The notes beneath the pieces were generated by a model. It worked only from the letters and a program-made list of their open reading frames with translations, had not been told where the DNA came from and did no database searches. Shown here in pieces: positions 8,663 to 20,622 of a DNA stretch of 20,622 nt. Position numbers and translations under genes: made by a program. The stretch spans positions 1 through 20,622 of the forward strand of contig CAYJJI010000017.1 in NCBI GenBank assembly GCA_964370475.1, in the 5' to 3' direction. Numbering within the stretch: position 1 is the first letter of the stretch; the number at the start of each line of letters is the position of its first letter. This DNA comes from an uncultured Muribaculaceae bacterium. Lineage in GTDB: Bacteria; Bacillota_I; Bacilli_A; RF39; UBA660.

Positions 8663-11227
8663 ATGAAAAATATAAAAAATAAACTATTTTATATTATCAT
8701 TGTATGTAGTGTATTGTTAGTGATTGTTTCAGTTGGTACTTATGCAAAATACATAGGTAACTCCATATGGGATTATTATATAGAAAGTCAAGGATTCTAC
8801 TTTTTCAGTGATAAATTAAGTGGTGAAAAAAATGTTAACAACGGATGGAATGGGACACCAGTATTATTTGACATAAGGAATTATAACGAAGAAAATGAAG
8901 TTTCAGACTTTCAAATAGAATATGAAATTACATGTACTATAACAAGCATTAATGCAAGCGATTTAGAATGTTCCGTAAACGGTTCAGGAACAAATACCTA
9001 CACAGGTGTATTAGAACAGACTAGAACATGCCAGAACACAAAAGGTGATGGAGTTAACACTTCGAATTTAAATGAATCAACTTGTACAAGTAGAGGATAT
9101 ACTTGGATAGATGGAAATACAAGTATTAATAATTTCTTTGAAATTAATAAAATAGACCCAAACACAGAAATTGGTGAAGTAACTGTTGAAATAGAAGCTA
9201 AATCATTATCACCATATAGTAAAACATTAAAGGGTGAATTTTATTTAAAAGAAAATGCAGCTATAGTAGAAGAAGAAATAATTTTTGAACATCAAAGTTA
9301 TAGTGATTACGAAAAAGTAATCATAACTAATAATTCATATAAAGACAGAACTTTCTTTCTAAGATGGGACCAAAATATATTAAGTATAGCTAAAGGAGAC
9401 TATATAATTTCCGGAGTTAGCTTAGGGAATATAAATGAAATTGAATTTGATATAGCAAAAGGTGAAACACTAACATATTCGTACTATAAAAAAAATAGTA
9501 GTGACGAAATAACTATCGAAGACTTCATTCTTCTTGATAAACCAGAACCACCAGCTATAAGGGTAAGCAGCATAGAACTATACTCAACAACTGGTGGAGC
9601 AGTAGAACTAAGTCCGGCAACATTTACTGAAGACACTACTAAAATAAACTTGTCCTTGCCTTCCGATACATCAACATTTACTTACGTAGTAACCATTGAA
9701 AATACAACAAATGATTATTACCATTTAAAGGGTATAGATCAACTACTAAATACCGCTAAAGCCGAAACAGTAACTAACGGTATGAGTTTATATCACGAAT
9801 TTGCACCAGGTACACTTTCGACATTTACCTTAACATATAAAGGAATATCAAATTTAACACAAAGTGAATTAGTATTAGAGGTACTATACGAATTCGCATT
9901 AGGTGAGGTGTATAAAGACGAAACTCTAAACGGAGCAACACCAGAGATTATAGATGGTCTAGTACCGATTAGTTATGATGAAACACTCAATGAATGGGTA
10001 AAAGCAGACTTAATAGAAAATGAATGGTATGATTATTCGATTATGAAATGGGCAAATGCCGCCAGCGTAATAAGCTCACAAAGAGACTTCTACACAGAAG
10101 CAGAAGCAGGAACTGTAGTAAGTATGGATCATATGACTTCAATGTTAGTGTGGATACCAAGATATTCATACACTATAAGAGAGACATTAGGATTCCATGT
10201 TCCAGGTGCTGGAAGTGTAAGTTTAACTACACCAGGAGCAATAGATATAATATTCCCTGGTATAGAAACTACCCACTTAGGAAGTGCTACTTATACAGGA
10301 ACAGAAGCAGAAAATTACTATACACCATCATCATTTTGTTGGGGTAACTCATGTGATGACCCAACAACGAGAAGTGATGAAGAAAATGAAGAAATAAAAG
10401 GATTTTGGATAGCTAAATTTGAAGCATCAAAAGTTAATAACATATTATATTCAAAACCAAACATGACACCAATGATTAATTATACAATTGCTGCTACATT
10501 CTATTATGTTCAAGAATTAATGAATGGAACTAACGGATACAATAACTACGGCTACGTAGGATATGTTGATGCTCACTTAATTAAAAATACAGAATGGGGA
10601 GCAATTGCATACTTAAGCCAATCTATTTATGGAAAATATGGAAATCCAGACTATACAGGAGCAAATAAAGAAATTTATTTAAATACATGTAGTACATATC
10701 GAACTGGAATAGGGGGATCATCAGCAGCAGATGGAAGAACTACAGCTTCTTGTTATAACTCTGATCATATGTATGATTCTTACAACGGAATGGGAGCATC
10801 AACTACAGGAAATATCTATGGAGTATACGACATGATAGGTGGAACGTTTGATAGAGTTATGGGAATAGTTTTAGGCCCTAATGGAGAGTTTATCCCAGAT
10901 TTATCAGGATTTACATCACTTCCAGAAGGAAGATATATTAACATATATCCTTATGGAACATACACTCAAGGTGATATATCACCGATTAAAGGTGATGGGC
11001 TTACAGAAACATTATATTTTTACAGTGATAGATATCTAGGAGATCCTAGGTTCTCATCCACTAATTATTATGACTATCATTGGTTATATAGAGGAGGAAG
11101 TTTATTTTTCTCAAACACAGCAGCCAACGGAATATTTTCTTATACTTTATTTAATGGCCAAGCTGATTCTCATCATTCATCAAGATTTACAATAACAATG
11201 ACAGGCTCACTAGTAACTAGTTTATAA
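8663..11227 (+). CDS. Large secreted or cell-surface protein (854 aa) with a TasA/camelysin-like N-terminal signal/motif region, a ~500-aa Thr/Ser/Asn-rich central region, and a C-terminal FGE/SUMF1-like (formylglycine-generating-enzyme family) domain.
   Basis: There is an N-terminal hydrophobic segment. The motifs GTYAKY and FYFFSDKLSGEKNVNN resemble the TasA/CalY GGGTFAFFSDKEVSNN region. The C-terminal region carries FGE-family hallmarks: FWIAKFEAS, NTEWGAIAYL (compare TEAEWEYAA), GVYDMIGGTFDRV (compare YDMSGNVWEW) and YRGGSLF (compare RGGSW). It lies 57 bp downstream of the ABC exporter and is probably in the same operon. Confidence 0.5.
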   Translation: MKNIKNKLFYIIIVCSVLLVIVSVGTYAKYIGNSIWDYYIESQGFYFFSDKLSGEKNVNNGWNGTPVLFDIRNYNEENEVSDFQIEYEITCTITSINASDLECSVNGSGTNTYTGVLEQTRTCQNTKGDGVNTSNLNESTCTSRGYTWIDGNTSINNFFEINKIDPNTEIGEVTVEIEAKSLSPYSKTLKGEFYLKENAAIVEEEIIFEHQSYSDYEKVIITNNSYKDRTFFLRWDQNILSIAKGDYIISGVSLGNINEIEFDIAKGETLTYSYYKKNSSDEITIEDFILLDKPEPPAIRVSSIELYSTTGGAVELSPATFTEDTTKINLSLPSDTSTFTYVVTIENTTNDYYHLKGIDQLLNTAKAETVTNGMSLYHEFAPGTLSTFTLTYKGISNLTQSELVLEVLYEFALGEVYKDETLNGATPEIIDGLVPISYDETLNEWVKADLIENEWYDYSIMKWANAASVISSQRDFYTEAEAGTVVSMDHMTSMLVWIPRYSYTIRETLGFHVPGAGSVSLTTPGAIDIIFPGIETTHLGSATYTGTEAENYYTPSSFCWGNSCDDPTTRSDEENEEIKGFWIAKFEASKVNNILYSKPNMTPMINYTIAATFYYVQELMNGTNGYNNYGYVGYVDAHLIKNTEWGAIAYLSQSIYGKYGNPDYTGANKEIYLNTCSTYRTGIGGSSAADGRTTASCYNSDHMYDSYNGMGASTTGNIYGVYDMIGGTFDRVMGIVLGPNGEFIPDLSGFTSLPEGRYINIYPYGTYTQGDISPIKGDGLTETLYFYSDRYLGDPRFSSTNYYDYHWLYRGGSLFFSNTAANGIFSYTLFNGQADSHHSSRFTITMTGSLVTSL

Positions 11228-12063: not shown

Positions 12064-12085
12064 ATAACAACCTCTTACATAAAGT

Positions 12086-12116
12086 ATAACATTAAAGTAA
12101 ACGTTTATGTTATAAT
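12086..12116. promoter_or_regulatory. Nested palindrome (ATAACAT-taaag-TAAACGTTTA-tGTTAT) overlapping an extended -10 (TGtTATAAT) in the divergent HD / NT5C promoter region.
   Basis: A 10-bp perfect palindrome TAAACGTTTA is flanked by the 7-bp inverted repeat ATAACAT/ATGTTAT. TGTTATAAT follows immediately. Confidence 0.35.
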
Positions 12117-12148
12117 AATGTAATTAACAAAGTGATTAGGAGATAAGT

Positions 12149-12709
12149 ATGAAGAAACTAATTTTAGATGTAGATGATGTAATAACAGGTGGAACATTTC
12201 TAAATGCTATTAACGAATTTTTAAATACTAACTACAAAGAAGATGAAGTAAAGAATTATTACATTCAAGATTTACTAGGAGAAAAAAAGGACGAATTTTT
12301 TGAAAAATTCGAAGAAATAGATCTATATAAATCAGCAAAATTATATGATAATTGTTATGACGTATTAAAAAGACTAAACGAAAAATATGACATTTACCCA
12401 TGTTCCGCATTCGTTTGGAGAGAAGTACCAGAAAAGAGCAGTGGAAACTTAAAAAATAAATACGATTTTCTATACAAAGAGTTACCATTTATTGACCCAA
12501 ATAAATACATATTCACAACTAGTAAAAATATAATAAAAGCTGACATAAGAATAGATGACAAAATGGAAAATTTAACAGATGCAAATCTAAATATATTATA
12601 TACAGCTTACCATAATAAAAACATCAACCAAGAAGAATTAGATAAGAATAATATCATTAGAGCAAATAATTGGCTAGAGATAGAAGAAATAATAAATAAT
12701 TACCAATAG
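12149..12709 (+). CDS. 5'(3')-deoxyribonucleotidase-like HAD hydrolase (NT5C family).
   Basis: The N-terminal DxDxV/T motif (LILDVDDVITGG) is present, the length is about 186 aa, and an RBS AGGAGA precedes the start. Confidence 0.6.
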   Translation: MKKLILDVDDVITGGTFLNAINEFLNTNYKEDEVKNYYIQDLLGEKKDEFFEKFEEIDLYKSAKLYDNCYDVLKRLNEKYDIYPCSAFVWREVPEKSSGNLKNKYDFLYKELPFIDPNKYIFTTSKNIIKADIRIDDKMENLTDANLNILYTAYHNKNINQEELDKNNIIRANNWLEIEEIINNYQ

Positions 12710-12751: not shown

Positions 12752-13417
12752 ATGAAAACCAAAGAAAAACACACCTTTATCGCAGATAACACAGGGAAAA
12801 TTCACGCATACCAAGGAGATAGTGAAAATTCAAAAAGAACTAAAATTTATATAAAAAGAATTGGAAAATCAACATTCATAATTGAAGGTGAAGAAACAAA
12901 AAATTGTGTTTTATCTTTTTTTGGTCTAATTGAATATATTAATGAAATAGCAAATATTGAAAATGAAATAATAGTTAGAAATTTATCTAGAGCTAATGTT
13001 GGTGCAATATTGAAATTATGTAATGAAAACAAAGAAAGAGAAAATCAAGAAACTGATCACAATCACAGCCAAGCACTTGCAATTGAAATAGCAAATAGAA
13101 GATTAATTGAATTGTTTGGAATCACTTATGAAGAATTCAGTAATTTAACTTGCCTAGAACAGAACGAATTAATGGAGATAATATATGCTAAAAAAGAAGA
13201 AAAAGATACAAATAAGGTAATGATTGAATCAGGAGATAATGCGTTATTCATCAAGAAAAAACTAGATGAAAAAGTAATGCTAGCTGATGGAACTTTCGTG
13301 AAAGTAGGAGATAATCCTTATCAAAGTAGAAAAAGAATAGATGAAAAACTAGATGAAATGGTTAATGAAAAAGAGTCGTTTGTAAGAAAATTAATTAAAA
13401 AAGTTGGTAGAAAATAA
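12752..13417 (+). CDS. Hypothetical cytoplasmic protein (221 aa). Its 3' end and terminator are duplicated at 14.9 kb.
   Basis: RBS is AGGAGA, and the protein has no TM segment or signal peptide. The last ~10 codons plus the hairpin (AAAGTTGGTAGAAAATAACTTCTATCAA) recur at 14914-14946. Confidence 0.5.
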   Translation: MKTKEKHTFIADNTGKIHAYQGDSENSKRTKIYIKRIGKSTFIIEGEETKNCVLSFFGLIEYINEIANIENEIIVRNLSRANVGAILKLCNENKERENQETDHNHSQALAIEIANRRLIELFGITYEEFSNLTCLEQNELMEIIYAKKEEKDTNKVMIESGDNALFIKKKLDEKVMLADGTFVKVGDNPYQSRKRIDEKLDEMVNEKESFVRKLIKKVGRK

Positions 13418-13436
13418 CTTCTATCAATTTTTTTAT
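13398..13436 (+). terminator. Hairpin terminator, a variant of the array hairpin family (AAAAAGTTGGTAGAA-aataac-TTCTATCAA + T7).
   Basis: The stem has one G-T wobble and is followed by TTTTTTT. It overlaps the stop codon of the 12752 gene. Confidence 0.6.
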
Positions 13437-13479
13437 ATACAAATGAATAATATGATAAAATACAATTAAAGAAGCTAAT

Positions 13480-13611
13480 ATGAATATTGAAAAAATATAT
13501 AGTAAATTAAACGAAAATATACGCTTAACTTTTGCAATAGTTAATAATCAAAACAACAAAAAAAGAATAGCTCATTTAAGAGCATATGAGAAAATAGAAT
13601 ATATTTTATGA
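13480..13611 (+). CDS. Possible 43-aa small ORF (MNIEKIYSKLNENIRLTFAIVNNQNNKKRIAHLRAYEKIEYIL). Weak.
   Basis: It is an ATG-initiated ORF in an otherwise ORF-free 420-bp gap, with only a weak AAAGAAG RBS. It is not in the supplied ORF track. Confidence 0.15.
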   Translation: MNIEKIYSKLNENIRLTFAIVNNQNNKKRIAHLRAYEKIEYIL

Positions 13612-13840
13612 CAATGTTCGCAACATCATTTTGTAACGAACTAAAACAATATAATGAAGTATTAATATGAGGTATGAGTAGTAATTCTAAAGTAGATCAC
13701 GACGAGTAAGGATTTCCTATATTTGAAAAGGGATATGCAAATAATATGACTGGTAAAATAGAGTGTAACAGCAATACTTCATTTAATAAATTAAATGTGC
13801 TATAATTAAAAGGTAATTAAAAATTGCTTTTGGAGGAAAA

Positions 13841-14536
13841 ATGAAAAATAAAAAAGGATTAAAAATAATTTTAGGTATTGTAGGAGTTATATTATTAATT
13901 TTCGCATACTTTATAAGTAGAGATTTAAATCAAGAAGACACACTAAGAGATACAATAAACAATTATATAGAAAATCAGATTGTACCAGATAAACCAAGTA
14001 CATCAGGAGAATACTATAAAATTGAAAAAGAAATTTTGAATTATTTAACAACTACTAGTAAATATACAGAAGAATTAACAGCTATTTTTAAAGAAATATA
14101 TGATTTTGAATTTTATTATTCTACTCATGCCTATGAGTCATTAAAAGATGACTTCAGTGCTGATTTAGAAAAAATAGAAAAGCTTAAAAATAATTTAAAT
14201 AATAAAATAAATCAATTTATAGAATTAAATAATTATGAAACATTACTAGAAAAGCATAATAGTGATGATGAATACTATAATGACTTATATATAGAACTTC
14301 TAGGAAGTGAAGAAGAATTTGATAATGTAAATAAATCATACAATGAAATTAAAACTATATATACAGATTATTTTATTAATGCTAATAATTATATCGAATT
14401 TTTAAAAAATTCATCACTTACTATTGATGATAATAAAGAAAATATGACATTTGATACTGATGAAGAAATCTCTAAATATGGACAATTAGCAGATGCATTA
14501 AACCTTAGTCTAGGTGAAATTGTAGCCACTGATTAG
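13841..14536 (+). CDS. Hypothetical membrane-anchored protein (N-terminal signal-anchor/TM followed by an acidic Asn/Glu/Tyr-rich extracytoplasmic domain).
   Basis: RBS is GGAGGA, and a hydrophobic segment LKIILGIVGVILLIFAYFI follows a Lys-rich N-terminus. Confidence 0.5.
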   Translation: MKNKKGLKIILGIVGVILLIFAYFISRDLNQEDTLRDTINNYIENQIVPDKPSTSGEYYKIEKEILNYLTTTSKYTEELTAIFKEIYDFEFYYSTHAYESLKDDFSADLEKIEKLKNNLNNKINQFIELNNYETLLEKHNSDDEYYNDLYIELLGSEEEFDNVNKSYNEIKTIYTDYFINANNYIEFLKNSSLTIDDNKENMTFDTDEEISKYGQLADALNLSLGEIVATD

Positions 14537-14594
14537 TTAAGAAACTATATTAATCTTAAAAATAAAATTAGTATTAGATATAGGAAAACCAAGC

Positions 14595-14935
14595 TGTCAT
14601 TTTATAAATGATAGAGGTACTTCGTCATATCACAATCATCCTAACAAATCAGCTAAATATGCATATGATATATTAAATAGACTAGATTATGAAAATGATT
14701 ATATCAAAAAAATAGTTTCTTGATAAAAGAACATGATACAAAAATAACAATAGATAATATAAAAGAATTTTATATAGAACCGTTAAATCTACTGATAAAA
14801 GTTCAAACAGCATATGCTTATGCACATCGTCCTGATTATTAAAAAAAAGAATCAAATATATTAGCAAATTTAAAGAATTAATTAAAACTAAAGTTGAAAA
14901 TAAAAAGTTAAATAAAGTTGGTAGAAAATAACTTC
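14595..14935 (+). pseudogene. Decayed gene remnant. Three short reading-frame fragments are separated by stops/frameshifts, and the last fragment (...KVENKKLNKVGRK*) is paralogous to the C-terminus of the 12752 gene (...VNEKESFVRKLIKKVGRK*).
   Basis: The translated fragments are LDIGKPSCHFINDRGTSSYHNHPNKSAKYAYDILNRLDYENDYIKKIVS*, KEHDTKITIDNIKEFYIEPLNLLIKVQTAYAYAHRPDY* and KKESNILANLKN*/LIKTKVENKKLNKVGRK*. The 3' terminal ~30 nt plus the hairpin are near-identical to 13401-13431. Confidence 0.4.
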
Positions 14936-15014
14936 TATCAACTTTATTTTTATAATAGGATTGTTTTAACACTAGATGTTAACTTATTTAAATAGAGAAT
15001 AACTCTAATATTTT
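14915..15014 (+). repeat. Inter-cassette repeat module, copy A (hairpin AAAGTTGGTAGAA..TTCTATCAACTTT + a more divergent conserved block ...GTTTTAacactAGaTGTTAACTTatTTAAATAGAGaATAACTCTAAtATTTTATAA).
   Basis: It aligns with the modules at 17317, 18449, 19317 and 20526. TATAAT follows at 15034-15039, then the RBS AGGAGATGAGG and a GTG start at 15064. Confidence 0.7.
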
Positions 15015-15063
15015 ATAATTCAACATAATTTGCTATAATATAATTAATTTAGGAGATGAGGCT

Positions 15064-16281
15064 GTGGCACAAATAAACGTTAAAGAATTAAATGATTATT
15101 TTAAATCTAAAAAAACTGGTTCAATGGAATTATTTTTTAAATACAAAAATGAAGAGTACGCTTTAACGTTGTATTTAGAAAAAGAAAAAGTATCTTTTCA
15201 AAAAATAAGTAAAGAGAATACCGATAAAGAAAAATATTATTACAACATTAATGATTTATTAAATGAAGAATATATTAATAAAGAAAAACTTATAGATATT
15301 TTTGATAAGTTCAATTTTTATGAAGAGTATAGTATAGAAGAAATTAAAAAAAATATTATTTCAAAAAAAGTGTATAGTTTATCAGGAAACATGTTAGATG
15401 GAATTAATGTATTTATAAATAACAAAAAAGCTGTATATAAATACAAACTTAATGAAAATAAAATAACCTTACAATTGAAAAATTATGTAGGTTTTAAAAA
15501 TTTAGAAGTAGTTTACGATGAAAATATATATCTTCATTTAAATAATGGCATAAATAATAATTATATCGATCCATGGAAATTTACTGTCGACTTAAAAAAA
15601 GAAATTAAAAAAATTATAATTATTGAATTTGAAATAAACTATAAATATTTTGTAAAAACAGTTTTCAAGTATATAAATAAATTTTTAGATAAAGATAATT
15701 TACTTTTAGAAATGAAACTGTTAAAAAATTTCAACATCTTTAATAATTATGCAGACGAAGTGGATAATCTCATATCTGAAATAGATTCTAAATCAATTAT
15801 AGATTTATTATTAGAAGAAAATAACGAATATGATAGAATATGCAAACTATTAATAAATAGTGAAATGTATAAAGAATTATATAATAAAATAGACTATAAA
15901 GATAAAATGTTAATTATAACTAATTATATTTCTTGTCCAAAACCTTTTGAAGTAAATCAAGAAGAATTTAATAAATTAGTAGAATCCGCAATTGAGTATA
16001 AAGTATCATTAGAATCTGTATGGAGACTCGCAATGTCTTATGATATGAGAAATTTAAACTATGATATAATTGATAGATTCTTTATAGATAAAAAAGATAT
16101 TTGGTATTTGGGTGAATATATAAGCGGAGTACAACAAATCAACACAGAAAATATAATAAATCTAATAATTAATACCAAAGATATTGAATATATAACTAAT
16201 ATACTTAATGATGAATGGGTTATAAATCATTTCAATAAAAATTGCATAGAAAAGTTAAAAAAGTATATAGAAAAAAGTTGA
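15064..16281 (+). CDS. Hypothetical cytoplasmic protein (405 aa, Asn/Lys/Ile-rich) with no recognised domain. GTG start.
   Basis: It is a long ORF with a strong RBS, and its stop codon is embedded in the left arm of the next hairpin. Confidence 0.5.
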   Translation: MAQINVKELNDYFKSKKTGSMELFFKYKNEEYALTLYLEKEKVSFQKISKENTDKEKYYYNINDLLNEEYINKEKLIDIFDKFNFYEEYSIEEIKKNIISKKVYSLSGNMLDGINVFINNKKAVYKYKLNENKITLQLKNYVGFKNLEVVYDENIYLHLNNGINNNYIDPWKFTVDLKKEIKKIIIIEFEINYKYFVKTVFKYINKFLDKDNLLLEMKLLKNFNIFNNYADEVDNLISEIDSKSIIDLLLEENNEYDRICKLLINSEMYKELYNKIDYKDKMLIITNYISCPKPFEVNQEEFNKLVESAIEYKVSLESVWRLAMSYDMRNLNYDIIDRFFIDKKDIWYLGEYISGVQQINTENIINLIINTKDIEYITNILNDEWVINHFNKNCIEKLKKYIEKS

Positions 16282-16357
16282 TAGGCATTAAATACATCAA
16301 CTTTTTTATTCGAAATTATTGTATAACAACTTAACTTCCTAATTGAAATAATTAGTA
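16271..16357 (+). repeat. Inter-cassette repeat module, degenerate copy (hairpin AAAAAAGTTGAT-aggcattaaatac-ATCAACTTTTTT, plus a remnant of the conserved block AACTTAACTTCCTAATTGAAATAATTAG).
   Basis: The outer 11 bp of the stem are conserved while the inner AGA/TCT part is replaced. The downstream block retains AACTTCCT..TTGAAATA. Confidence 0.55.
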
Positions 16358-16363
16358 GAAAAA

Positions 16364-16392
16364 TTGACTTTTTAAAAGTTATTAAATATAAT
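16364..16392 (+). promoter_or_regulatory. Near-consensus sigma-A promoter (TTGACT - 17 nt - TATAAT) for the 16423 gene.
   Basis: The sequence is TTGACTttttaaaagttattaaaTATAAT, with the RBS AAGGGAGA following. Confidence 0.5.
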
Positions 16393-16422
16393 ACACTTTA
16401 TATAAAAAGGGAGAAAAACTAT

Positions 16423-17313
16423 ATGAATAATTTATTTAATAGAGCTTTCATAACTGTAGATACAGCTAATTTGAAAAAAGAATTGGAAATTCCGATTCAA
16501 AGACCCAGAGGAATTTCTTTTAAACCTCGTAAAGGATTATGGGCAACCACTTATATTGGTGAAGATGGTAATATATGTGACTGGTTAAATTATATACAAA
16601 AATATCATAGAAATATGATGTTTAATAAAGCTTGTATCTTCACTTTAAAAAAAGATGCAAATATATATACTATAGACAATGTTGATTCAGTTATACAAGC
16701 TAGCATAAAATATCCTTCATTACATCATAAATTATTGCAATGTAATTCTTCTTTTAAACGCTCATTACCTAATAAGTTACCAATTAATTATGAAGCACTA
16801 CTTGATGAATATGATGGTGTTTACATAAATTTAGAAAATTTACCACATCAAATGTTAATTGAAGATGGTGAATTTAATAGGTTTGATGTTAATTCCTTAA
16901 TTATCTCAAATATAGATAGTATTGAACATTATCAAAGCTTGGCGTTATCAAAGGATGAAAACAATTTATATTCTATTTCTAGTATAAGTGAACACAAGCA
17001 TATTTCTTCATTAAACCCATTGTTTCTGTCAATTTTAGAAGAACTTAAAAATAAAGTTCAATTAGAAATAGAAAATAATCAATATTATCAATTACAAGAA
17101 AATTATGAAGACTGTTATAGAGAACTTGATGATTTAATTCATAGAGCAATCAATCGTATTTATTATCAATATGAAAGTGATTTTCATCAATTGAACTATG
17201 AATTAATGTGTAATGGATTTTACCCAATACAAGTTGTTATGTCACAAATAGTATTATCTGAACAACTAAGAAAAGGGGACCAAACTTACTTTAGAAGATA
17301 TTTAAATAAATGA
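16423..17313 (+). CDS. Hypothetical cytoplasmic protein (296 aa) with no recognised domain.
   Basis: ORF with RBS AAGGGAGA. It is immediately followed by an array hairpin. Confidence 0.5.
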   Translation: MNNLFNRAFITVDTANLKKELEIPIQRPRGISFKPRKGLWATTYIGEDGNICDWLNYIQKYHRNMMFNKACIFTLKKDANIYTIDNVDSVIQASIKYPSLHHKLLQCNSSFKRSLPNKLPINYEALLDEYDGVYINLENLPHQMLIEDGEFNRFDVNSLIISNIDSIEHYQSLALSKDENNLYSISSISEHKHISSLNPLFLSILEELKNKVQLEIENNQYYQLQENYEDCYRELDDLIHRAINRIYYQYESDFHQLNYELMCNGFYPIQVVMSQIVLSEQLRKGDQTYFRRYLNK

Positions 17314-17316
17314 ATT

Positions 17317-17420
17317 AAAAAGTTGATAGAAATTTAATCTATCAACTTTTATTATCTTAATAGGCGGTTTTAGTTGAAGTGGTTAACTTCATTTAAATAG
17401 CGTATAACTAAAATATTTTA
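17317..17420 (+). repeat. Inter-cassette repeat module, copy B (hairpin AAAAAGTTGATAGA-aatttaa-TCTATCAACTTTT + block taataggcGGTTTTAGTTGAAGTgGTTAACTTCaTTTAAATAGcGTATAACTaaAatATTTTa).
   Basis: It has a 13-bp perfect stem and a T-tract, and the conserved block aligns with copies C, D and E. An extended -10 TGaTATAAT lies at 17437-17445, and the RBS is TAGGAGA. Confidence 0.75.
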
Positions 17421-17492
17421 AACCTTTAATAGGTTGTGATATAATTTAACTGTATTAAAAATAAAAGTAAAAAAATTAATAGGAGATAAATA

Positions 17493-18449
17493 ATGAAAAA
17501 CAAAGAATATTTTTTTAAAATAATAATAAATTATTTAAATAAAAACAAAAAAATTAGAGTTAACAGATTTATTCAAAGTTTATATGATCAATATGGATAT
17601 GGTTATGACGAAATAAGCGATGCTAATTTATTGATGAGTTTACAAGGCTATAATATGAATTTAGAAATTCCTCTCTTAGCTACTGGGCAAAATGGTTATT
17701 TTAATGACCAAATAGAAAAAAATGGACTAACATCACAAACTTTAGATGAACAGGACTTAGAAGATGCAAAATTTATAGCAGAAAGTTTTGGGAAAAATAC
17801 AAATTATGGAAACAACAATGTTCCAATAAACTATATTACAATGCTCGGGTCTACTGAATTTAATTATGCTTCACAATCTTTTCCAGCAGGAATTTTGGAA
17901 GATGTTTTTCAGTGTAGTCCTAATCGAGATTTCCCTATACAATTGATTTTGGGTGAAAGAGAACAAGATTTTTATTTAAGATTGTTACATTTCCAAATGA
18001 AAAACATTGAAACTTTTGATACAAATAAAGAAATAGAAGTAATTAATAGAGCCAGAAGATTATTAGAAAATTTTTGTAAAAATAAAAACAGAGTATATAT
18101 AATTGGATTGGATGATGTTTTGAATTGCAAAGCTGCTGCTGGAGATGTTCTTGGTCTTAGAGATGGCAGTTTATCAAATGAAGAAGCGATAAACAAAATA
18201 GAATCTTTAGATACTTTTGAACAATTATTAAATAGTTTTAATATAGATTCAACAAACATGTTTCATGATCAAAATCTAAACGGAGAATATGGAATTTCTG
18301 TATATAGTCCAATACCTAGGAATAAATTAAGTTATATCGAAGTAGAAAGATCTTATATTTTATTGCAAAAGAGAGCCTTCGATTTAGGTTACAAGATTGG
18401 TGATGAAATATTAATACATGAAAAATCACAAGAACAACACATTAAATAA
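17493..18449 (+). CDS. Hypothetical cytoplasmic protein (318 aa) with no recognised domain.
   Basis: ORF with RBS AGGAGA. It is followed by an array hairpin. Confidence 0.5.
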   Translation: MKNKEYFFKIIINYLNKNKKIRVNRFIQSLYDQYGYGYDEISDANLLMSLQGYNMNLEIPLLATGQNGYFNDQIEKNGLTSQTLDEQDLEDAKFIAESFGKNTNYGNNNVPINYITMLGSTEFNYASQSFPAGILEDVFQCSPNRDFPIQLILGEREQDFYLRLLHFQMKNIETFDTNKEIEVINRARRLLENFCKNKNRVYIIGLDDVLNCKAAAGDVLGLRDGSLSNEEAINKIESLDTFEQLLNSFNIDSTNMFHDQNLNGEYGISVYSPIPRNKLSYIEVERSYILLQKRAFDLGYKIGDEILIHEKSQEQHIK

Positions 18450-18550
18450 AAAAGTTGATAGAATCTAATCTATCAACTTTTATTTTCCTAATGAACAGTT
18501 TTAGTAGAAGTTGTTAACTCATTTAAATAGAGTATAACTCTAACATTTTA
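18449..18550 (+). repeat. Inter-cassette repeat module, copy C (hairpin AAAAAGTTGATAGA-atctaa-TCTATCAACTTTT + block taatgaacAGTTTTAGTaGAAGTTGTTAACTcaTTTAAATAGAGTATAACTCTAACATTTTATAAATGCAA).
   Basis: The block contains the perfect palindrome TAGAGTATAACTCTA. Two -10 boxes follow: TATAAT at 18560-18565 and a TATGATACAAT element around 18612-18622. Confidence 0.75.
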
Positions 18551-18653
18551 TAAATGCAATATAATTTGTTAATCAATTTATAAAGTAAAGTATAATTCTG
18601 ATTTTGATTAAATCAATGATGTATGATACAATAACACTTAGGTGAATGTACTG

Positions 18654-19271
18654 ATGAATGAACAAATGTATAAAAATTTTGTCTATTGTTGTAATAGTGT
18701 AGCTATACAATTACACTTTGACAATAGTAATGATGGATATATCAATAATTTATTAGCTTTTGAAAATCATGATGGAACTTTTATAGATACAATTACTAAA
18801 AATAATAATATTATTAAAGGAACGCACTATGGTGTTTGTTTCACTATGGCTTGTTATATATTTAATTTGCTTACTGAGATGGGAGCTGAAGAATATTATT
18901 TAATGTCTTCTTCTAATGGTAGAGAACCAAATACGGTTGTTTTATATAAATATGATAATGAATATAAGATATGTGATTTAGGTAGAGGAGTTGTATTTTT
19001 CGAACGAAAAATTAATGATTTATTTGAAGGTTTAATTTCAAATGTAGTAGATATAAGTGATATGCAAAGTTTAAATGATTTAAAAACAGAAATAGGAAAT
19101 CAAAAATTTTATGATATATCGGTTGACGAGTATATAAAAATATATCCTAAAATAACTTGTGATGTTATATTACATAGTGGTAACGAAGATAAGCCATTTT
19201 TTGAAATTCCAAGAGTAAATATAGAAGAGTTTATACAAAATAAATTAAACAGTTCTAAAAGTGTTAAATAA
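18654..19271 (+). CDS. Hypothetical protein (about 205 aa; start ambiguous among ATG 18642, 18654 and 18666), with a possible Cys-centred motif (HYGVCFTMACY).
   Basis: GGTGA is at 18636-18640, and the spacing favours the ATG at 18654. No confident domain assignment can be made. Confidence 0.4.
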   Translation: MNEQMYKNFVYCCNSVAIQLHFDNSNDGYINNLLAFENHDGTFIDTITKNNNIIKGTHYGVCFTMACYIFNLLTEMGAEEYYLMSSSNGREPNTVVLYKYDNEYKICDLGRGVVFFERKINDLFEGLISNVVDISDMQSLNDLKTEIGNQKFYDISVDEYIKIYPKITCDVILHSGNEDKPFFEIPRVNIEEFIQNKLNSSKSVK

Positions 19272-19288
19272 TTTAAGAAGAATAAACT

Positions 19289-19316
19289 TTGACACATTAT
19301 AACAATTATATATAAT
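19289..19316 (+). promoter_or_regulatory. Consensus-like promoter (TTGACA - 16 nt - TATAAT) located immediately upstream of the copy-D hairpin.
   Basis: The sequence is TTGACAcattataacaattatataTATAAT. Transcripts would start inside or at the hairpin. Confidence 0.3.
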
Positions 19317-19412
19317 AAAAAAGTTGATAGAAATTAATCTATCAACTTTTATTTTTTTAATGGGGCAATTTTACTTGAAGTTGCTAACTTCCTTTAAATA
19401 GAGTATACCCGA
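19317..19412 (+). repeat. Inter-cassette repeat module, copy D (hairpin AAAAAAGTTGATAGA-aattaa-TCTATCAACTTTT + block taatggggcAaTTTTAcTTGAAGTTGCTAACTTCCTTTAAATAGAGTATAcCCgaAtATTTcgTAAATGCAAG).
   Basis: The inverted repeat GAAGTTgctaAACTTC is perfect here. An extended -10 TGaTATAAT lies at 19438-19445. Confidence 0.75.
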
Positions 19413-19462
19413 ATATTTCGTAAATGCAAGAAAATTTGATATAATTAATACGGGTGAAGAAT

Positions 19463-20008
19463 ATGGAAACACTTTATACTAGCAGACTAATATTAAAAAA
19501 AGGTAATTTAGATGATTATAAAAAAGTCTTTGAATACGACTTTAAAAAATTAATGAATGTTGATAATGTATTTGAATATGTAAAAAAAGATGACGATATT
19601 AGCGTTAAACAGTTAGAAATTATGGTTAATAGACCAGAAGAAAAAGATTATTATGAATATATAATATATCTAAAAGATACAAACGAACCAATTGGTCATA
19701 TTATTGCAGATAGAAAAAATAAAGAATATAATGCATTAGAACTAGGCTATGATTTACACCCTGATTATTGGAATAATGGATATATGACAGAGGCAACTGT
19801 TAAATTTATTAACTTTTTATTTTCAAGAGGTTATGATAATGTTTTAAGTGGATATGCAAAAGGTAATTTTAAATCCAAAGGATTACTAGAAAAACTAGGA
19901 TTTAAAGAATTTGAAGAGGGAATAATGTATGTATCACCAACAAAAACTGTTCCACAGTATCATTGTATATTAAGTAAAGATATTTTTATGAAGACTATTA
20001 TTATGTAG
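19463..20008 (+). CDS. GNAT-family N-acetyltransferase (RimJ/RimL-like, Acetyltransf_3 type).
   Basis: The GNAT core reads ...NALELGYDLHPDYWNNGYMTEATVKFINFLFSRGYDNVLSGYAKGNFKSKGLLEKLGFKEFEEG. GGGTGAAG precedes the ATG at 19463 (the ORF track's GTG at 19454 is less likely). Confidence 0.75.
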   Translation: METLYTSRLILKKGNLDDYKKVFEYDFKKLMNVDNVFEYVKKDDDISVKQLEIMVNRPEEKDYYEYIIYLKDTNEPIGHIIADRKNKEYNALELGYDLHPDYWNNGYMTEATVKFINFLFSRGYDNVLSGYAKGNFKSKGLLEKLGFKEFEEGIMYVSPTKTVPQYHCILSKDIFMKTIIM

Positions 20009-20037
20009 GTAAATGGTCAAGAGAAGTAGAAAACTTT

Positions 20038-20514
20038 ATGTATTCATTTTGTGAAATATATCCAATTGAAGATGGAGAAGTACCAGAATATATTTTTATG
20101 GATGATAAAGTAAACAGAGCATTTAAATTATGTGAAAAAACAAACGAAAATGTTATTAGAATAGCTATATATAATGTGAAAGGTGAAGTTGTATATGAAA
20201 AAAAGTATGTGGTATATACAAATGAAAATATAAATTCTGAAATTACTGAAAAATTATATAGATTATGTGTTGATAACTATGATAGAATAACTCCAAGTGA
20301 CAAATATAGGGATAAGGTATTAAAATTACTAAAAAAAGATTTAGAAAATTTTGAATGTATTGTAGCAATATATGAGGATGATAATTTAATAGGATATTCA
20401 GCAGGTAATGGATACCTTGAACAGATTTGTGTTGTAAAAAAATATGATAATAGAAAGTTAAAAAAAGTATTGATTGATTATATATCGGAAAATAAATTTT
20501 TAAAAATAAAATAA
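20038..20514 (+). CDS. Hypothetical small protein (158 aa), possibly a second GNAT-like fold (weak), co-transcribed with the upstream acetyltransferase.
   Basis: It starts 30 nt after the GNAT gene with no intervening repeat module. The C-terminal segment LIGYSAGNGYLEQICVVKKYDNRKLKKVLIDYI is loosely GNAT-like. Confidence 0.35.
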   Translation: MYSFCEIYPIEDGEVPEYIFMDDKVNRAFKLCEKTNENVIRIAIYNVKGEVVYEKKYVVYTNENINSEITEKLYRLCVDNYDRITPSDKYRDKVLKLLKKDLENFECIVAIYEDDNLIGYSAGNGYLEQICVVKKYDNRKLKKVLIDYISENKFLKIK

Positions 20515-20525
20515 TAAACGAGAAA

Positions 20526-20622
20526 TAAAAAAGTTGATAGAAACTAATCTATCAACTTTTATTTTCCTAATGGGGCAGTTTTAGTTGAAGTTGCTAACTT
20601 CCTTTGAATAGAGTATAACTCA
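20526..20622 (+). repeat. Inter-cassette repeat module, copy E (hairpin AAAAAAGTTGATAGA-aactaa-TCTATCAACTTTT + block taatggggcAGTTTTAGTTGAAGTTGCTAACTTCCTTTgAATAGAGTATAACTCa), truncated by the window end.
   Basis: It is near-identical to copy D over 90 nt. Confidence 0.75.

Follow-up and report, generated by a model that had tools for sequence, protein, structure and literature searches.

A repeated hairpin module with tRNA-His-derived segments delimits an array of unrelated genes in uncultured low-GC gut bacteria

Introduction

Arrays of single-gene cassettes in bacteria tend to be taken for integrons, elements that Gram-positive bacteria are believed to lack and that are not known from Bacillota lineages. 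In integron arrays, sedentary chromosomal integrons and clusters of attC sites lacking integron-integrases (CALINs), co-oriented cassettes of about 1 kb with a single open reading frame (ORF) are separated by a palindromic repeat of about 100 bp, and the cargo includes ORFans and acetyltransferases. Plug-in terminator/promoter modules for swapping unrelated genes have, as far as we are aware, been documented mainly in T4-type phages so far. There, promoter-early stem-loop (PeSL) cassettes border ORFans, bound insertions and deletions between related genomes and yield mini-circles (PMC2839356, Arbiol et al., 2010; PMC4122927, Comeau et al., 2014). Here, we analyze contig CAYJJI010000017.1 of assembly GCA_964370475.1, which is the window of this study at its entire length of 20,622 nt and in which, between 13.4 and 20.6 kb, co-oriented and unrelated genes are delimited by five full or near-full, one degenerate and one hairpin-only copy of a hairpin-plus-block module.

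In relatives, arrays built with the same module sit in the 3′ flank of the tRNA-His gene, and the 3′ flank of a tRNA gene is the classical position of horizontally acquired DNA. Moreover, the module includes a tRNA-derived segment, so that a boundary element in the chromosome of uncultured low-GC gut bacteria appears to be recycled from a tRNA transcription unit. A first-pass annotation of the window had seen the repeated unit and proposed a hotspot at which unrelated genes are captured or shuffled by recombination, an idea that is the best current, albeit unproven, explanation. The tRNA-His anchoring, the tRNA-derived parts of the module and a promoter-like element on its minus strand had escaped that annotation; the tRNA-His origin of the boundary element and the second, oppositely oriented promoter are thus newly observed here.

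Architecture of the Repeated Module

The hairpin-plus-block module is a real repeat. A module profile (nhmmer) recovered it at 14909, 17311, 18442, 19313 and 20523 with E-values between 1e-21 and 1e-35, and the block following the hairpin, alignable across copies, constitutes a family of four 94-nt copies plus an 85-nt pair. Window copies are 69–87% identical to one another; those at 19317 and 20526 reach 94% over 94 nt, whereas the more than 90% previously ascribed to modules D and E (18449 versus 19317) comes down to 62% in ungapped and 74% in gapped alignment. Of the six copies and the additional hairpin-only copy counted earlier, the latter (13398) and five full or near-full ones stand, while the copy at 16271 keeps little of its block. 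The module spans about 130 bp and is composed of the terminator, a trailer with ‘TGGGGC’, a tRNA-like relic, a putative minus-strand promoter and a putative plus-strand promoter with ribosome-binding site (RBS).

All copies in the window have the same orientation, on the plus strand. The hairpin-only copy, GTTGGTAGA...TCTATCAAT, is located at 13397..13433 (hairpin 13400-13431) and was found by pattern search with no such site expected by chance. Module A (14909..15039; E=2.7e-21) has a variant hairpin at 14914-14945, a diverged block and the predicted promoter TGCTATAAT at 15031-15039. In the degenerate module B (16267..16345), a hairpin with an 11-bp stem (16271-16307) is accompanied by the block remnant ‘TAACTTCCT’ only, and a predicted plus-strand promoter, TTGACT-17-TATAAT, lies downstream at 16364-16392. 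Module C (17311..17445; E=3e-28) combines a hairpin (17318-17350), a segment resembling the 5′ half of tRNA-His (17364-17387, GCGGTTTTAGTTGAAGTGGTTAAC) and the predicted promoter TGATATAAT (17437-17445). The latter motif is also present in module E (19313..19445; E=4.5e-34) at 19437-19445, following a hairpin at 19319-19350 and the block at 19362-19409. Module D (18442..18571) consists of a hairpin at 18450-18481 and a block with a D-arm-like motif ending at 18518, and module F (20523..20622), cut by the contig end, retains its hairpin (20529-20560) and block.

The perfect 13-bp stem that had been described for the hairpins in general, AAAAGTTGATAGA-N6/7-TCTATCAACTTTT, is realized in modules C to F. 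In contrast, the hairpin-only copy and module A bear variants of the form GTTGGTAGA...TCTATCAA(C/T), none of which is expected by chance with the relaxed pattern, and the stem of module B is degenerate. The loops differ among the window copies (AATTAA, AACTAA, ATCTAA, and AATTTAA), and the stop codons of the cassette genes lie at or inside the hairpin. With A-runs and T-runs flanking both strands and RNA fold energies between −14.7 and −18 kcal/mol, the AT-rich hairpin is predicted to be a bidirectional intrinsic terminator, and a terminator scan of 11–20.6 kb resulted in nine terminator-like sites versus 0.7 expected. In the two variant copies, the plus-strand form is the more stable one because of G·U pairs (−15.8 versus −8.7 kcal/mol for 13397..13433 and −18.0 versus −15.3 kcal/mol for module A), and strand-specific pairs of this kind argue for a function at the RNA level.

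In line with the earlier proposal that each cassette has its own promoter, either an extended −10 promoter (TGnTATAAT) or TTGACT-17-TATAAT is predicted ahead of the genes. The extended −10 promoter is accompanied by an RBS and stands back to back with a second promoter-like element on the minus strand of ‘TTTAAATAGAGTATAACTC...AAATGCAAG’, which shows TTGnnn, a 16/17-nt spacer and TATACT in 10 of the 11 copies with the −35 region present; two further copies, cut by a contig end before the −35, stand outside this count. TTG and the −10 (with the variants TATAAT, TATGCT, and TATTCT) are kept, while adjacent bases are variable. In module D, TTGCAT (complement of 18554-18559) and TATACT (complement of 18531-18536) are separated by 17 nt, and in module E the same motifs (complements of 19424-19429 and 19402-19407) by 16 nt, whereas window copy C is crippled in its −10 (TATACG) and also in its −35. 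From the minus-strand promoter, transcription up to the shared terminator would give an RNA of about 80 nt, for which a fold with two hairpins is predicted at a z-score of about −4.9.

Considering these features, the block could be functional by itself, either as a minus-strand gene derived from tRNA-His (TTGCAT-17-TATACT with the RNA of about 80 nt) or as the operator of a regulator, in which case the array would be a regulon, the alternative put forward in the first-pass annotation, and recombination secondary. The RNA, which would comprise a 5′ stem-loop and a C-rich stretch (‘CUGCCCCA’) ahead of the shared terminator, or the regulator would then coordinate or antisense-silence the adjacent cassettes. 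The retention of the minus-strand promoter and the stable fold are consistent with such a role, as are the motif AGTTGA, recurring in hairpin arms and block, a block identity of 85–94% across genomes versus about 70% for proteins, and module L004_7344, which is located next to a convergent gene and keeps the whole minus-strand unit without a plus-strand promoter. However, no Rfam family matched the module, hits at gathering as well as relaxed thresholds being confined to tRNA-Asn and chance miRNA-like hairpins, and the 5′ stem is not backed by compensatory changes, as variation is confined to the loops. In addition, the minus-strand promoter scores too low to reach the consensus threshold set in the scan, besides being crippled in copy C, no regulator gene is in view, and both the tRNA-His anchoring and the turnover of cassettes are left unexplained. 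Hence, we consider this explanation of the array unlikely, although a function of the block can be compatible with either of the exchange mechanisms discussed below.

Restriction of the Module to One Locus

Scanning one genome per species for the exact hairpin resulted in six contigs of mouse-gut metagenome-assembled genomes (MAGs) of project ERP123703 and one chance terminator in Acinetobacter; the set of relatives was completed by further contigs of the same lineage. Within this set, module copies were found by profile in L001–L004, L006–L008, L027, L029, and L030, always within short arrays of co-oriented accessory genes. While about 27 kb of arrays hold 23 copies, none was detected by profile in about 93 kb of non-array DNA, comprising positions 1–12.7 kb of the window, dnaA–parB in L008, the 20 kb that surround the array on a 206-kb contig, and the flanks on the XFP side in L028–L030. 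Likewise, the exact hairpin is present on a single contig in each of the six species representatives, a count that comes from incomplete MAGs, and a 22-kb stretch of the 206-kb contig has only three copies, all within 2 kb of tRNA-His.

The module is thus confined to one locus and is not a BOX/RUP/STAR-like repeat between arbitrary genes, a possibility raised in the first-pass annotation. In view of these numbers, it is extremely improbable that an ordinary genome-wide intergenic repeat (REP/BOX/RUP/MITE-like) is locally dense by chance, even when considering that MAGs are incomplete and break at repeats, so that copies may be missed. Unrelated metagenome contigs and one Acinetobacter genome do contain the same stem as a single terminator; these matches, however, are hairpin-only. 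A hairpin scan of JGI metagenomes gave 15 unrelated contigs (L012–L026) in which the stem is a lone terminator without the block and which are therefore uninformative on the module. In these contigs and in L005 (Acinetobacter sp. NIPH 298), the same 12–13-nt arm forms a solitary terminator stem, probably by chance, as is to be expected for a palindrome, where only one arm has to match by chance.

Anchoring at tRNA-His and Origin of the Module

In every array with an assembled end, the terminal hairpin is followed by its trailer (‘...TCTATCAACTTTTATTTTCCTAATGGGGC’) and immediately by a tRNA-His(GTG) gene, which is encoded on the opposite strand and meets the trailer with its 3′ end. ARAGORN placed the tRNA at this junction in L001, L002, L003/L030, L004, L006/L027, and L029, and the far side of tRNA-His is occupied by conserved genes, either XFP, pheST...XFP or cotJB/cotJC. 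Four contigs, L028, L031, L032, and L034, have their starts at the tRNA-His 3′ end or no more than about 50 nt from it (L028 exactly there, with TGGGGCG), which suggests an assembly break at a repeat; a repeat array at tRNA-His explains why these MAGs break systematically at this gene.

Three of these contigs with the pheST-XFP arrangement start in a different hairpin by the tRNA-His 3′ end, TTGCCAACC-AATTA-GGTTAGCAA (L031 1-25, L032 1-47, and L034 1-35), which suggests an analogous repeat family at the tRNA-His site. The arm of this hairpin and the block of the window module have the 11-mer AAGTTGCTAAC in common. Positions 5443-5690 of L001 show a partial module, made up of a different terminator hairpin and the block, and about 190 nt without ORF, after which the canonical hairpin and tRNA-His follow; this arrangement looks like an empty cassette slot.

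The identity between modules and the real tRNA-His junction extends through ‘TGGGGC’ and stops directly after it. The shared segment accordingly comprises ‘GCCCCA’, the last 6 nt of the tRNA 3′ end, together with about 50 nt of trailer and terminator. Beyond ‘TGGGGC’, about 27 nt of the module resemble the 5′ half of tRNA-His (acceptor strand and D arm) in sense orientation on the plus strand. In local alignment, GCGGTTTTAGTTGAAGTGGTTAAC of module C matches GCGGTCTT-GGTGAAGTGGTTAAC of tRNA-His with z=11.4 (0 of 300 shuffles as good) and module D reaches z=5.3; the other modules are at z values of about 2, yet they are homologous to C and D. A 15-mer of the D arm gives five hits versus 0.2 expected and is present in modules C, D, and F, in C with one mismatch. 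Neither ARAGORN nor Rfam calls the tRNA-like segment of the module a tRNA. As an origin of the block, an antisense or internal-deletion derivative of the adjacent tRNA was rejected: only the sense alignment with the 5′ half is significant and antisense alignments are not, so that a simple internal deletion of the neighboring gene does not account for the relic.

The real tRNA-His/XFP intergenic region shows the same architecture as the module, in the order terminator, tRNA on the minus strand, tRNA promoter, TGnTATAAT, RBS, and XFP. On the basis of this correspondence, the module can be read as a rearranged copy of the tRNA-His/XFP transcription-unit boundary in which the tRNA body may have been replaced by the relic of about 45 nt. 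In layout, the minus-strand element of the module is matched by the real promoters of tRNA-His genes in the lineage (cTTGCaT/TTGCTT-17-TAAAAT/TATACT). A profile of the promoter half of the module finds only modules and not the real tRNA-His promoters; thus, the promoter likeness is one of layout.

Alternatively, arrays at this position might result from site-specific capture resembling integrons or cis-mobilizable elements (CIMEs), with a distant integrase inserting one-gene circles at the tRNA-His 3′ end. The site would be the hairpin (13-bp arms, 6-nt spacer) plus ‘TAATGGGGC’, duplicated with each insertion, and the newest cassette would be the one beside the tRNA. Core sites of tyrosine recombinases do resemble such a 13-6-13 geometry. 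Also in line with this mechanism, the arrays abut the tRNA-His 3′ end in all genomes with a visible end, the identity of junction and module stops directly after ‘TGGGGC’, across species the stem of the hairpin varies less than the tRNA gene (about 83% identity), cassette boundaries match ORF ends, and integrating elements are known to leave partial tRNA genes behind as footprints (PMC9897764). On the other hand, integrase, resolvase, and transposase genes were not found in the window or in about 130 kb of related loci (about 150 kb examined), and the tRNA-like fragment is an inverted 5′ half instead of the usual direct repeat of the 3′ end. Loop sequences vary among the window copies, T-tracts and strand-specific G·U pairs are as in RNA terminators, and the same genes are found with or without the module. 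Consequently, a site-specific mechanism at tRNA-His appears quite unlikely.

Unlikely, too, is the existence of an undescribed gene-capture platform of Bacillota, in which an unlinked dedicated mechanism would insert single ORFs beside tRNA-His and the module would be both attachment site and expression slot, supplying terminator, promoter and RBS. In that case, the mechanism could be a recombinase guided by the hairpin or by tRNA structure. A role in targeting or in silencing of cassettes might fall to the putative minus-strand RNA (about 80 nt), which is antisense in part to the 5′ half of tRNA-His. If true, such a platform would represent an independently evolved integron analogue in Gram-positive gut bacteria.

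Cassette Differences Between Genomes

Comparison of arrays, in all cases between different species-level MAGs, demonstrates that cassette content varies at the same anchor, a point on which the first-pass annotation had made its proposal dependent. L027 and L030 have a common tRNA-His/XFP anchor (XFP 71% identical) and different cassettes. In L027, these encode a 249-aa protein, an AAA_15/AAA_21 ATPase, a type often met in defence systems, as well as a CHC2 zinc-ribbon protein, while L030 shows two minus-strand unknowns, a methyltransferase fragment and an extracytoplasmic function (ECF)-type sigma factor with a DUF3221 protein. The cassettes of L004 comprise a homologue of the window gene at 12752, an HD gene, a GNAT gene and one for an uncharacterized protein. 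Homologues of window genes 12752 and 15064 occur in other orders and contexts; that of 15064 follows gidB-parB without an upstream module in L008 and has a downstream module on the small contig L007.

The modules themselves are strongly conserved across genomes, with identities of 93% between window module F and L030_2740 and 94% between L004_5240 and L008_11655, compared to about 70% for the XFP protein and about 83% for the tRNA-His genes of the same genomes. Module copies are equally similar between and within genomes. L004_5240 and L008_10934 are alike through promoter, 5′ untranslated region and RBS up to the ATG, whereas the proteins encoded downstream are unrelated (E>0.4). Two modules of L004 have the left half in common and differ in the right half, pointing to mosaicism inside the module.

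With a chance that we rate as about even, the region represents a lineage-specific flexible gene array, anchored at tRNA-His in relatives, in which the modules insulate the genes and serve as portable homology. The module would make each cassette an insulated transcription unit, and the modules, as direct repeats common to co-resident lineages, would offer portable homology through which whole genes could be gained, lost or exchanged. Possible routes of exchange are unequal crossing-over, excision of one-gene circles followed by Campbell-type re-insertion, and replacement after DNA uptake, as proposed by analogy with the PeSL cassettes in T4-type phages. Of the postulated recombination hotspot, unrelated genes between homologous modules at one locus are evident, and we infer that capture and shuffling proceed by homologous recombination between modules. 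Such an array suggests a simple route for small genomes to keep a flexible pocket of accessory genes, possibly for conflict or defence.

Several points weigh against a flexible gene array. Exact identity tracts between the window modules have a length of 12–29 nt at most, which is marginal for RecA-dependent exchange, so that the window array may be old and static. Some genes, as at L008 9361/10001, have a module upstream in some instances but not in others. That the block is so strongly conserved across species might be due to a sequence-specific role, as an RNA or a protein-binding site, and not to mobility. The module’s promoter half shows no statistically supported homology to the real tRNA-His promoter, and promoter and terminator activities are predicted from sequence. 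In the species-level MAG comparisons, no recombination event, circle or strain-level polymorphism was directly seen. Furthermore, the window’s own tRNA-His junction would lie past the contig end, which falls in module F. As to the latter, the window contains at 14.6 kb a pseudogene of the gene that follows XFP in relatives and hence belongs to the same neighborhood.

Genes of the Array

From 12149 to the contig end, every credible gene is on the plus strand, in agreement with the co-orientation reported before; the minus-strand ORF 14682-14972 overlaps the pseudogene and module A and is therefore spurious. The first of these genes, at 12149, is NT5C-like according to a domain match. It precedes cassette gene 1 (12752..13417, 221 aa), for which Pfam, PADLOC, and NCBIfam gave no match and whose final codons enter the hairpin of the hairpin-only copy, with the stop codon in the loop; the homologue in L004 is 56% identical and is followed by a full module. 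Cassette gene 2 (13841..14536) encodes a 231-aa protein with a hydrophobic N-terminal anchor and has TGCTATAAT upstream at 13797-13805. The decayed gene already noticed at 14.6 kb was confirmed by blastx as the frameshifted C-terminal part of an HD-like protein of about 190 aa (14556..14890), matching L028 2541-3122 in two frames (65 and 46% identity) and also L031 8012-8566; in relatives, the parent gene is located directly after XFP. Downstream of module A, a gene for a 405-aa protein (15064..16281) has its stop codon inside the 5′ arm of the hairpin, and further genes follow for a 296-aa ORFan (16423..17313), a 318-aa protein (17493..18449), and a 205-aa protein counted from ATG 18654 (18654..19271; GTG 18642 in the ORF list) without detected domain.

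The last cassette in the window, 19454..20514, holds two genes. Of the GNAT acetyltransferase(s) expected at this end, the one at 19454/19463-20008 is supported by Pfam (Acetyltransf_3, E=1.2e-19 for 19454-20008), whereas domain searches did not detect any domain in the 158-aa product of 20038-20514. As the contig stops within module F, the count of at least seven cassettes is a lower bound. At the other side, the HD/NT5C intergenic region (12064-12148) holds ‘AAAGTATAAC’ and ‘TGTTATAAT’, reminiscent of the right half of the module, and in L004 the HD gene lies inside the array, adjoining a module; hence, the left border of the window array may be located left of 12752.

As stated in the first-pass annotation, the cassette proteins are mutually unrelated in sequence comparison and mostly without domains: searches of the proteins of the cassette region against Pfam, PADLOC, NCBIfam, and PDB sequences returned only the GNAT (19454) and NT5C (12149) matches. 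Among 5.8 billion proteins, the 16423 ORFan has a sole homologue (50% identity), encoded at L033 319-1348. That gene, from a different low-GC organism, directly adjoins the 3′ terminus of tRNA-Leu(CAA) and is accompanied by unrelated terminators and no module. The 15064 family has about 40 members in gut Bacilli-type MAGs; its AlphaFold2 model (pLDDT 78.5) shows a beta-rich domain and a helical repeat, without a specific fold match in structure search. The 17493 protein possibly adopts an ADP-ribosyltransferase-like fold. Taken together, the cargo looks like accessory or conflict-type genes, with the GNAT, the possible ADP-ribosyltransferase-fold protein and the ORFans in the window and the AAA_15/21 ATPase in relatives.

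Resemblance to orphan immunity-gene arrays of polymorphic-toxin loci and to phase-variable families had been pointed out before. One gene per unit, small uncharacterized proteins and a secreted 854-aa protein encoded upstream (8663-11227) would fit an immunity-gene array or a phase-variable family of surface proteins. In contrast, the domain, defence and repeat searches lend no support: LXG, Rhs, type VII secretion system (T7SS), and Imm/SUKH families were not detected by Pfam, PADLOC, and NCBIfam, the cassette proteins are not paralogous, and the HD and NT5C genes lie between the gene of the 854-aa protein and the array. Phase variation was rejected, as simple-sequence tracts and inverted repeats around promoters, as in invertible promoters, were not found, and a polymorphic-toxin array likewise, with toxin and Imm families missing and structure searches of two cassette proteins being uninformative or ADP-ribosyltransferase-like. 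Both interpretations are therefore hardly credible.

Host and Genomic Setting

The window is AT-rich (GC 19–35%), and the six contigs with the exact hairpin have GC contents of 21–27%. Contigs of the same lineage encode dnaA-rpmH-rnpA-yidC-jag-trmE-gidA-gidB-parB, which in L008, from a further MAG of ERP123703, is followed by the array, as well as phosphoketolase (XFP), pheST, polA, and ffh. Sporulation genes, namely cotJB, cotJC and a SpoIID-like gene, are present in L001, L002, and L004, and source records assign more distant relatives of the lineage’s proteins to ‘Bacilli’ or ‘Mollicutes bacterium’. Gene content, low GC and these names indicate that the host chromosome is that of a low-GC (about 25%), probably spore-forming member of the Bacillota, and neither a phage nor a Bacteroidota genome. 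The label ‘uncultured Muribaculaceae’ carried by L001–L004, L006, and L007 looks wrong, considering the GC of 21–27% and the Bacillota-type genes. A phage or plasmid origin was rejected, since megablast of both window halves against phage and plasmid collections gave no match except tRNA-Asn, a hairpin scan of IMG/VR gave none and the window contains housekeeping genes.

Two further observations were made in the window upstream of the array. Two adjacent ORFs (75-1250 and 1269-1448) share the coding sequence of NrdD, the anaerobic ribonucleotide reductase, the second one (59 aa) contributing the glycyl-radical C terminus (Pfam NRDD positions 533-562); a frameshift, an error in sequencing or a truly split gene could each account for this. 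The 854-aa protein encoded at 8663-11227 has an N-terminal membrane anchor and belongs to no Pfam, NCBIfam or PADLOC family, and a near-identical relative was not found in the protein collection.

Comparison With Known Systems

Like PeSL cassettes, the window modules are composites of a terminator stem-loop and a sigma-70-type promoter, both sequence-predicted here, which extend from the upstream stop codon at the left edge to the Shine-Dalgarno sequence and start codon. Also as for PeSL, copies are concentrated in a variable, ORFan-rich region and differences between genomes, here in species-level comparisons only, are bounded by the motif, with cassette sets differing at the same anchor in L027, L030, and L004. 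While PeSL cassettes reside in T4-type phage genomes and serve early phage transcription, the array is found in a bacterial chromosome, close to dnaA...gidB-parB in L008, where it is tied to a single locus with tRNA-His as anchor. With about 130 bp, the module exceeds PeSL in length; it is also far more conserved in sequence and holds the relic derived from tRNA-His as well as a second, opposite promoter. Neighboring PeSL motifs recombine to yield mini-circles; the present array is known from sequence.

With integron arrays, the locus shares co-oriented single-ORF cassettes, a conserved palindromic spacer of about 100 bp, and ORFans together with an acetyltransferase. Unlike in integrons, intI, attI, and Pc are absent from the window, in which the far end of the array is unassembled, and from related loci, including both sides of the tRNA-His anchor, and each cassette has its own promoter-like site. 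Judged from T-tracts, fold energies and perfect 13-bp palindromes, the hairpins are terminators and not bulged attC sites, as had been recognized in the first-pass annotation.

Genomic islands linked to tRNA genes, CIMEs, and integrative and mobilizable elements (IMEs) resemble the arrays in L001, L002, L004, L027, L029, and L030 in having variable DNA at a tRNA 3′ end, and the likeness extends to repeated units with sequence of the tRNA locus and to tandem units without their own integrase. However, the units here are single genes of about 1 kb, the repeat takes in just 6 nt at the 3′ end of the tRNA and the terminator downstream of it, and the tRNA-like piece is an inverted 5′ half. A cognate integrase for CIME-type accretion was not found in the about 150 kb examined.

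Finally, whole-gene exchange by homologous recombination between conserved sequences is also known from the minimal mobile elements, NIME/dRS3 arrays and DNA-uptake-sequence repeats of Neisseria, where intergenic repeat arrays have been proposed to promote exchange and a conserved inverted repeat doubles as terminator (PMC3898611). In contrast to these genome-wide repeats with about 700–2000 copies, the module described here bears promoters and resides at one locus, and whereas minimal mobile elements are defined by conserved flanking genes, it is the repeated module that delimits the genes of the tRNA-His-anchored arrays.

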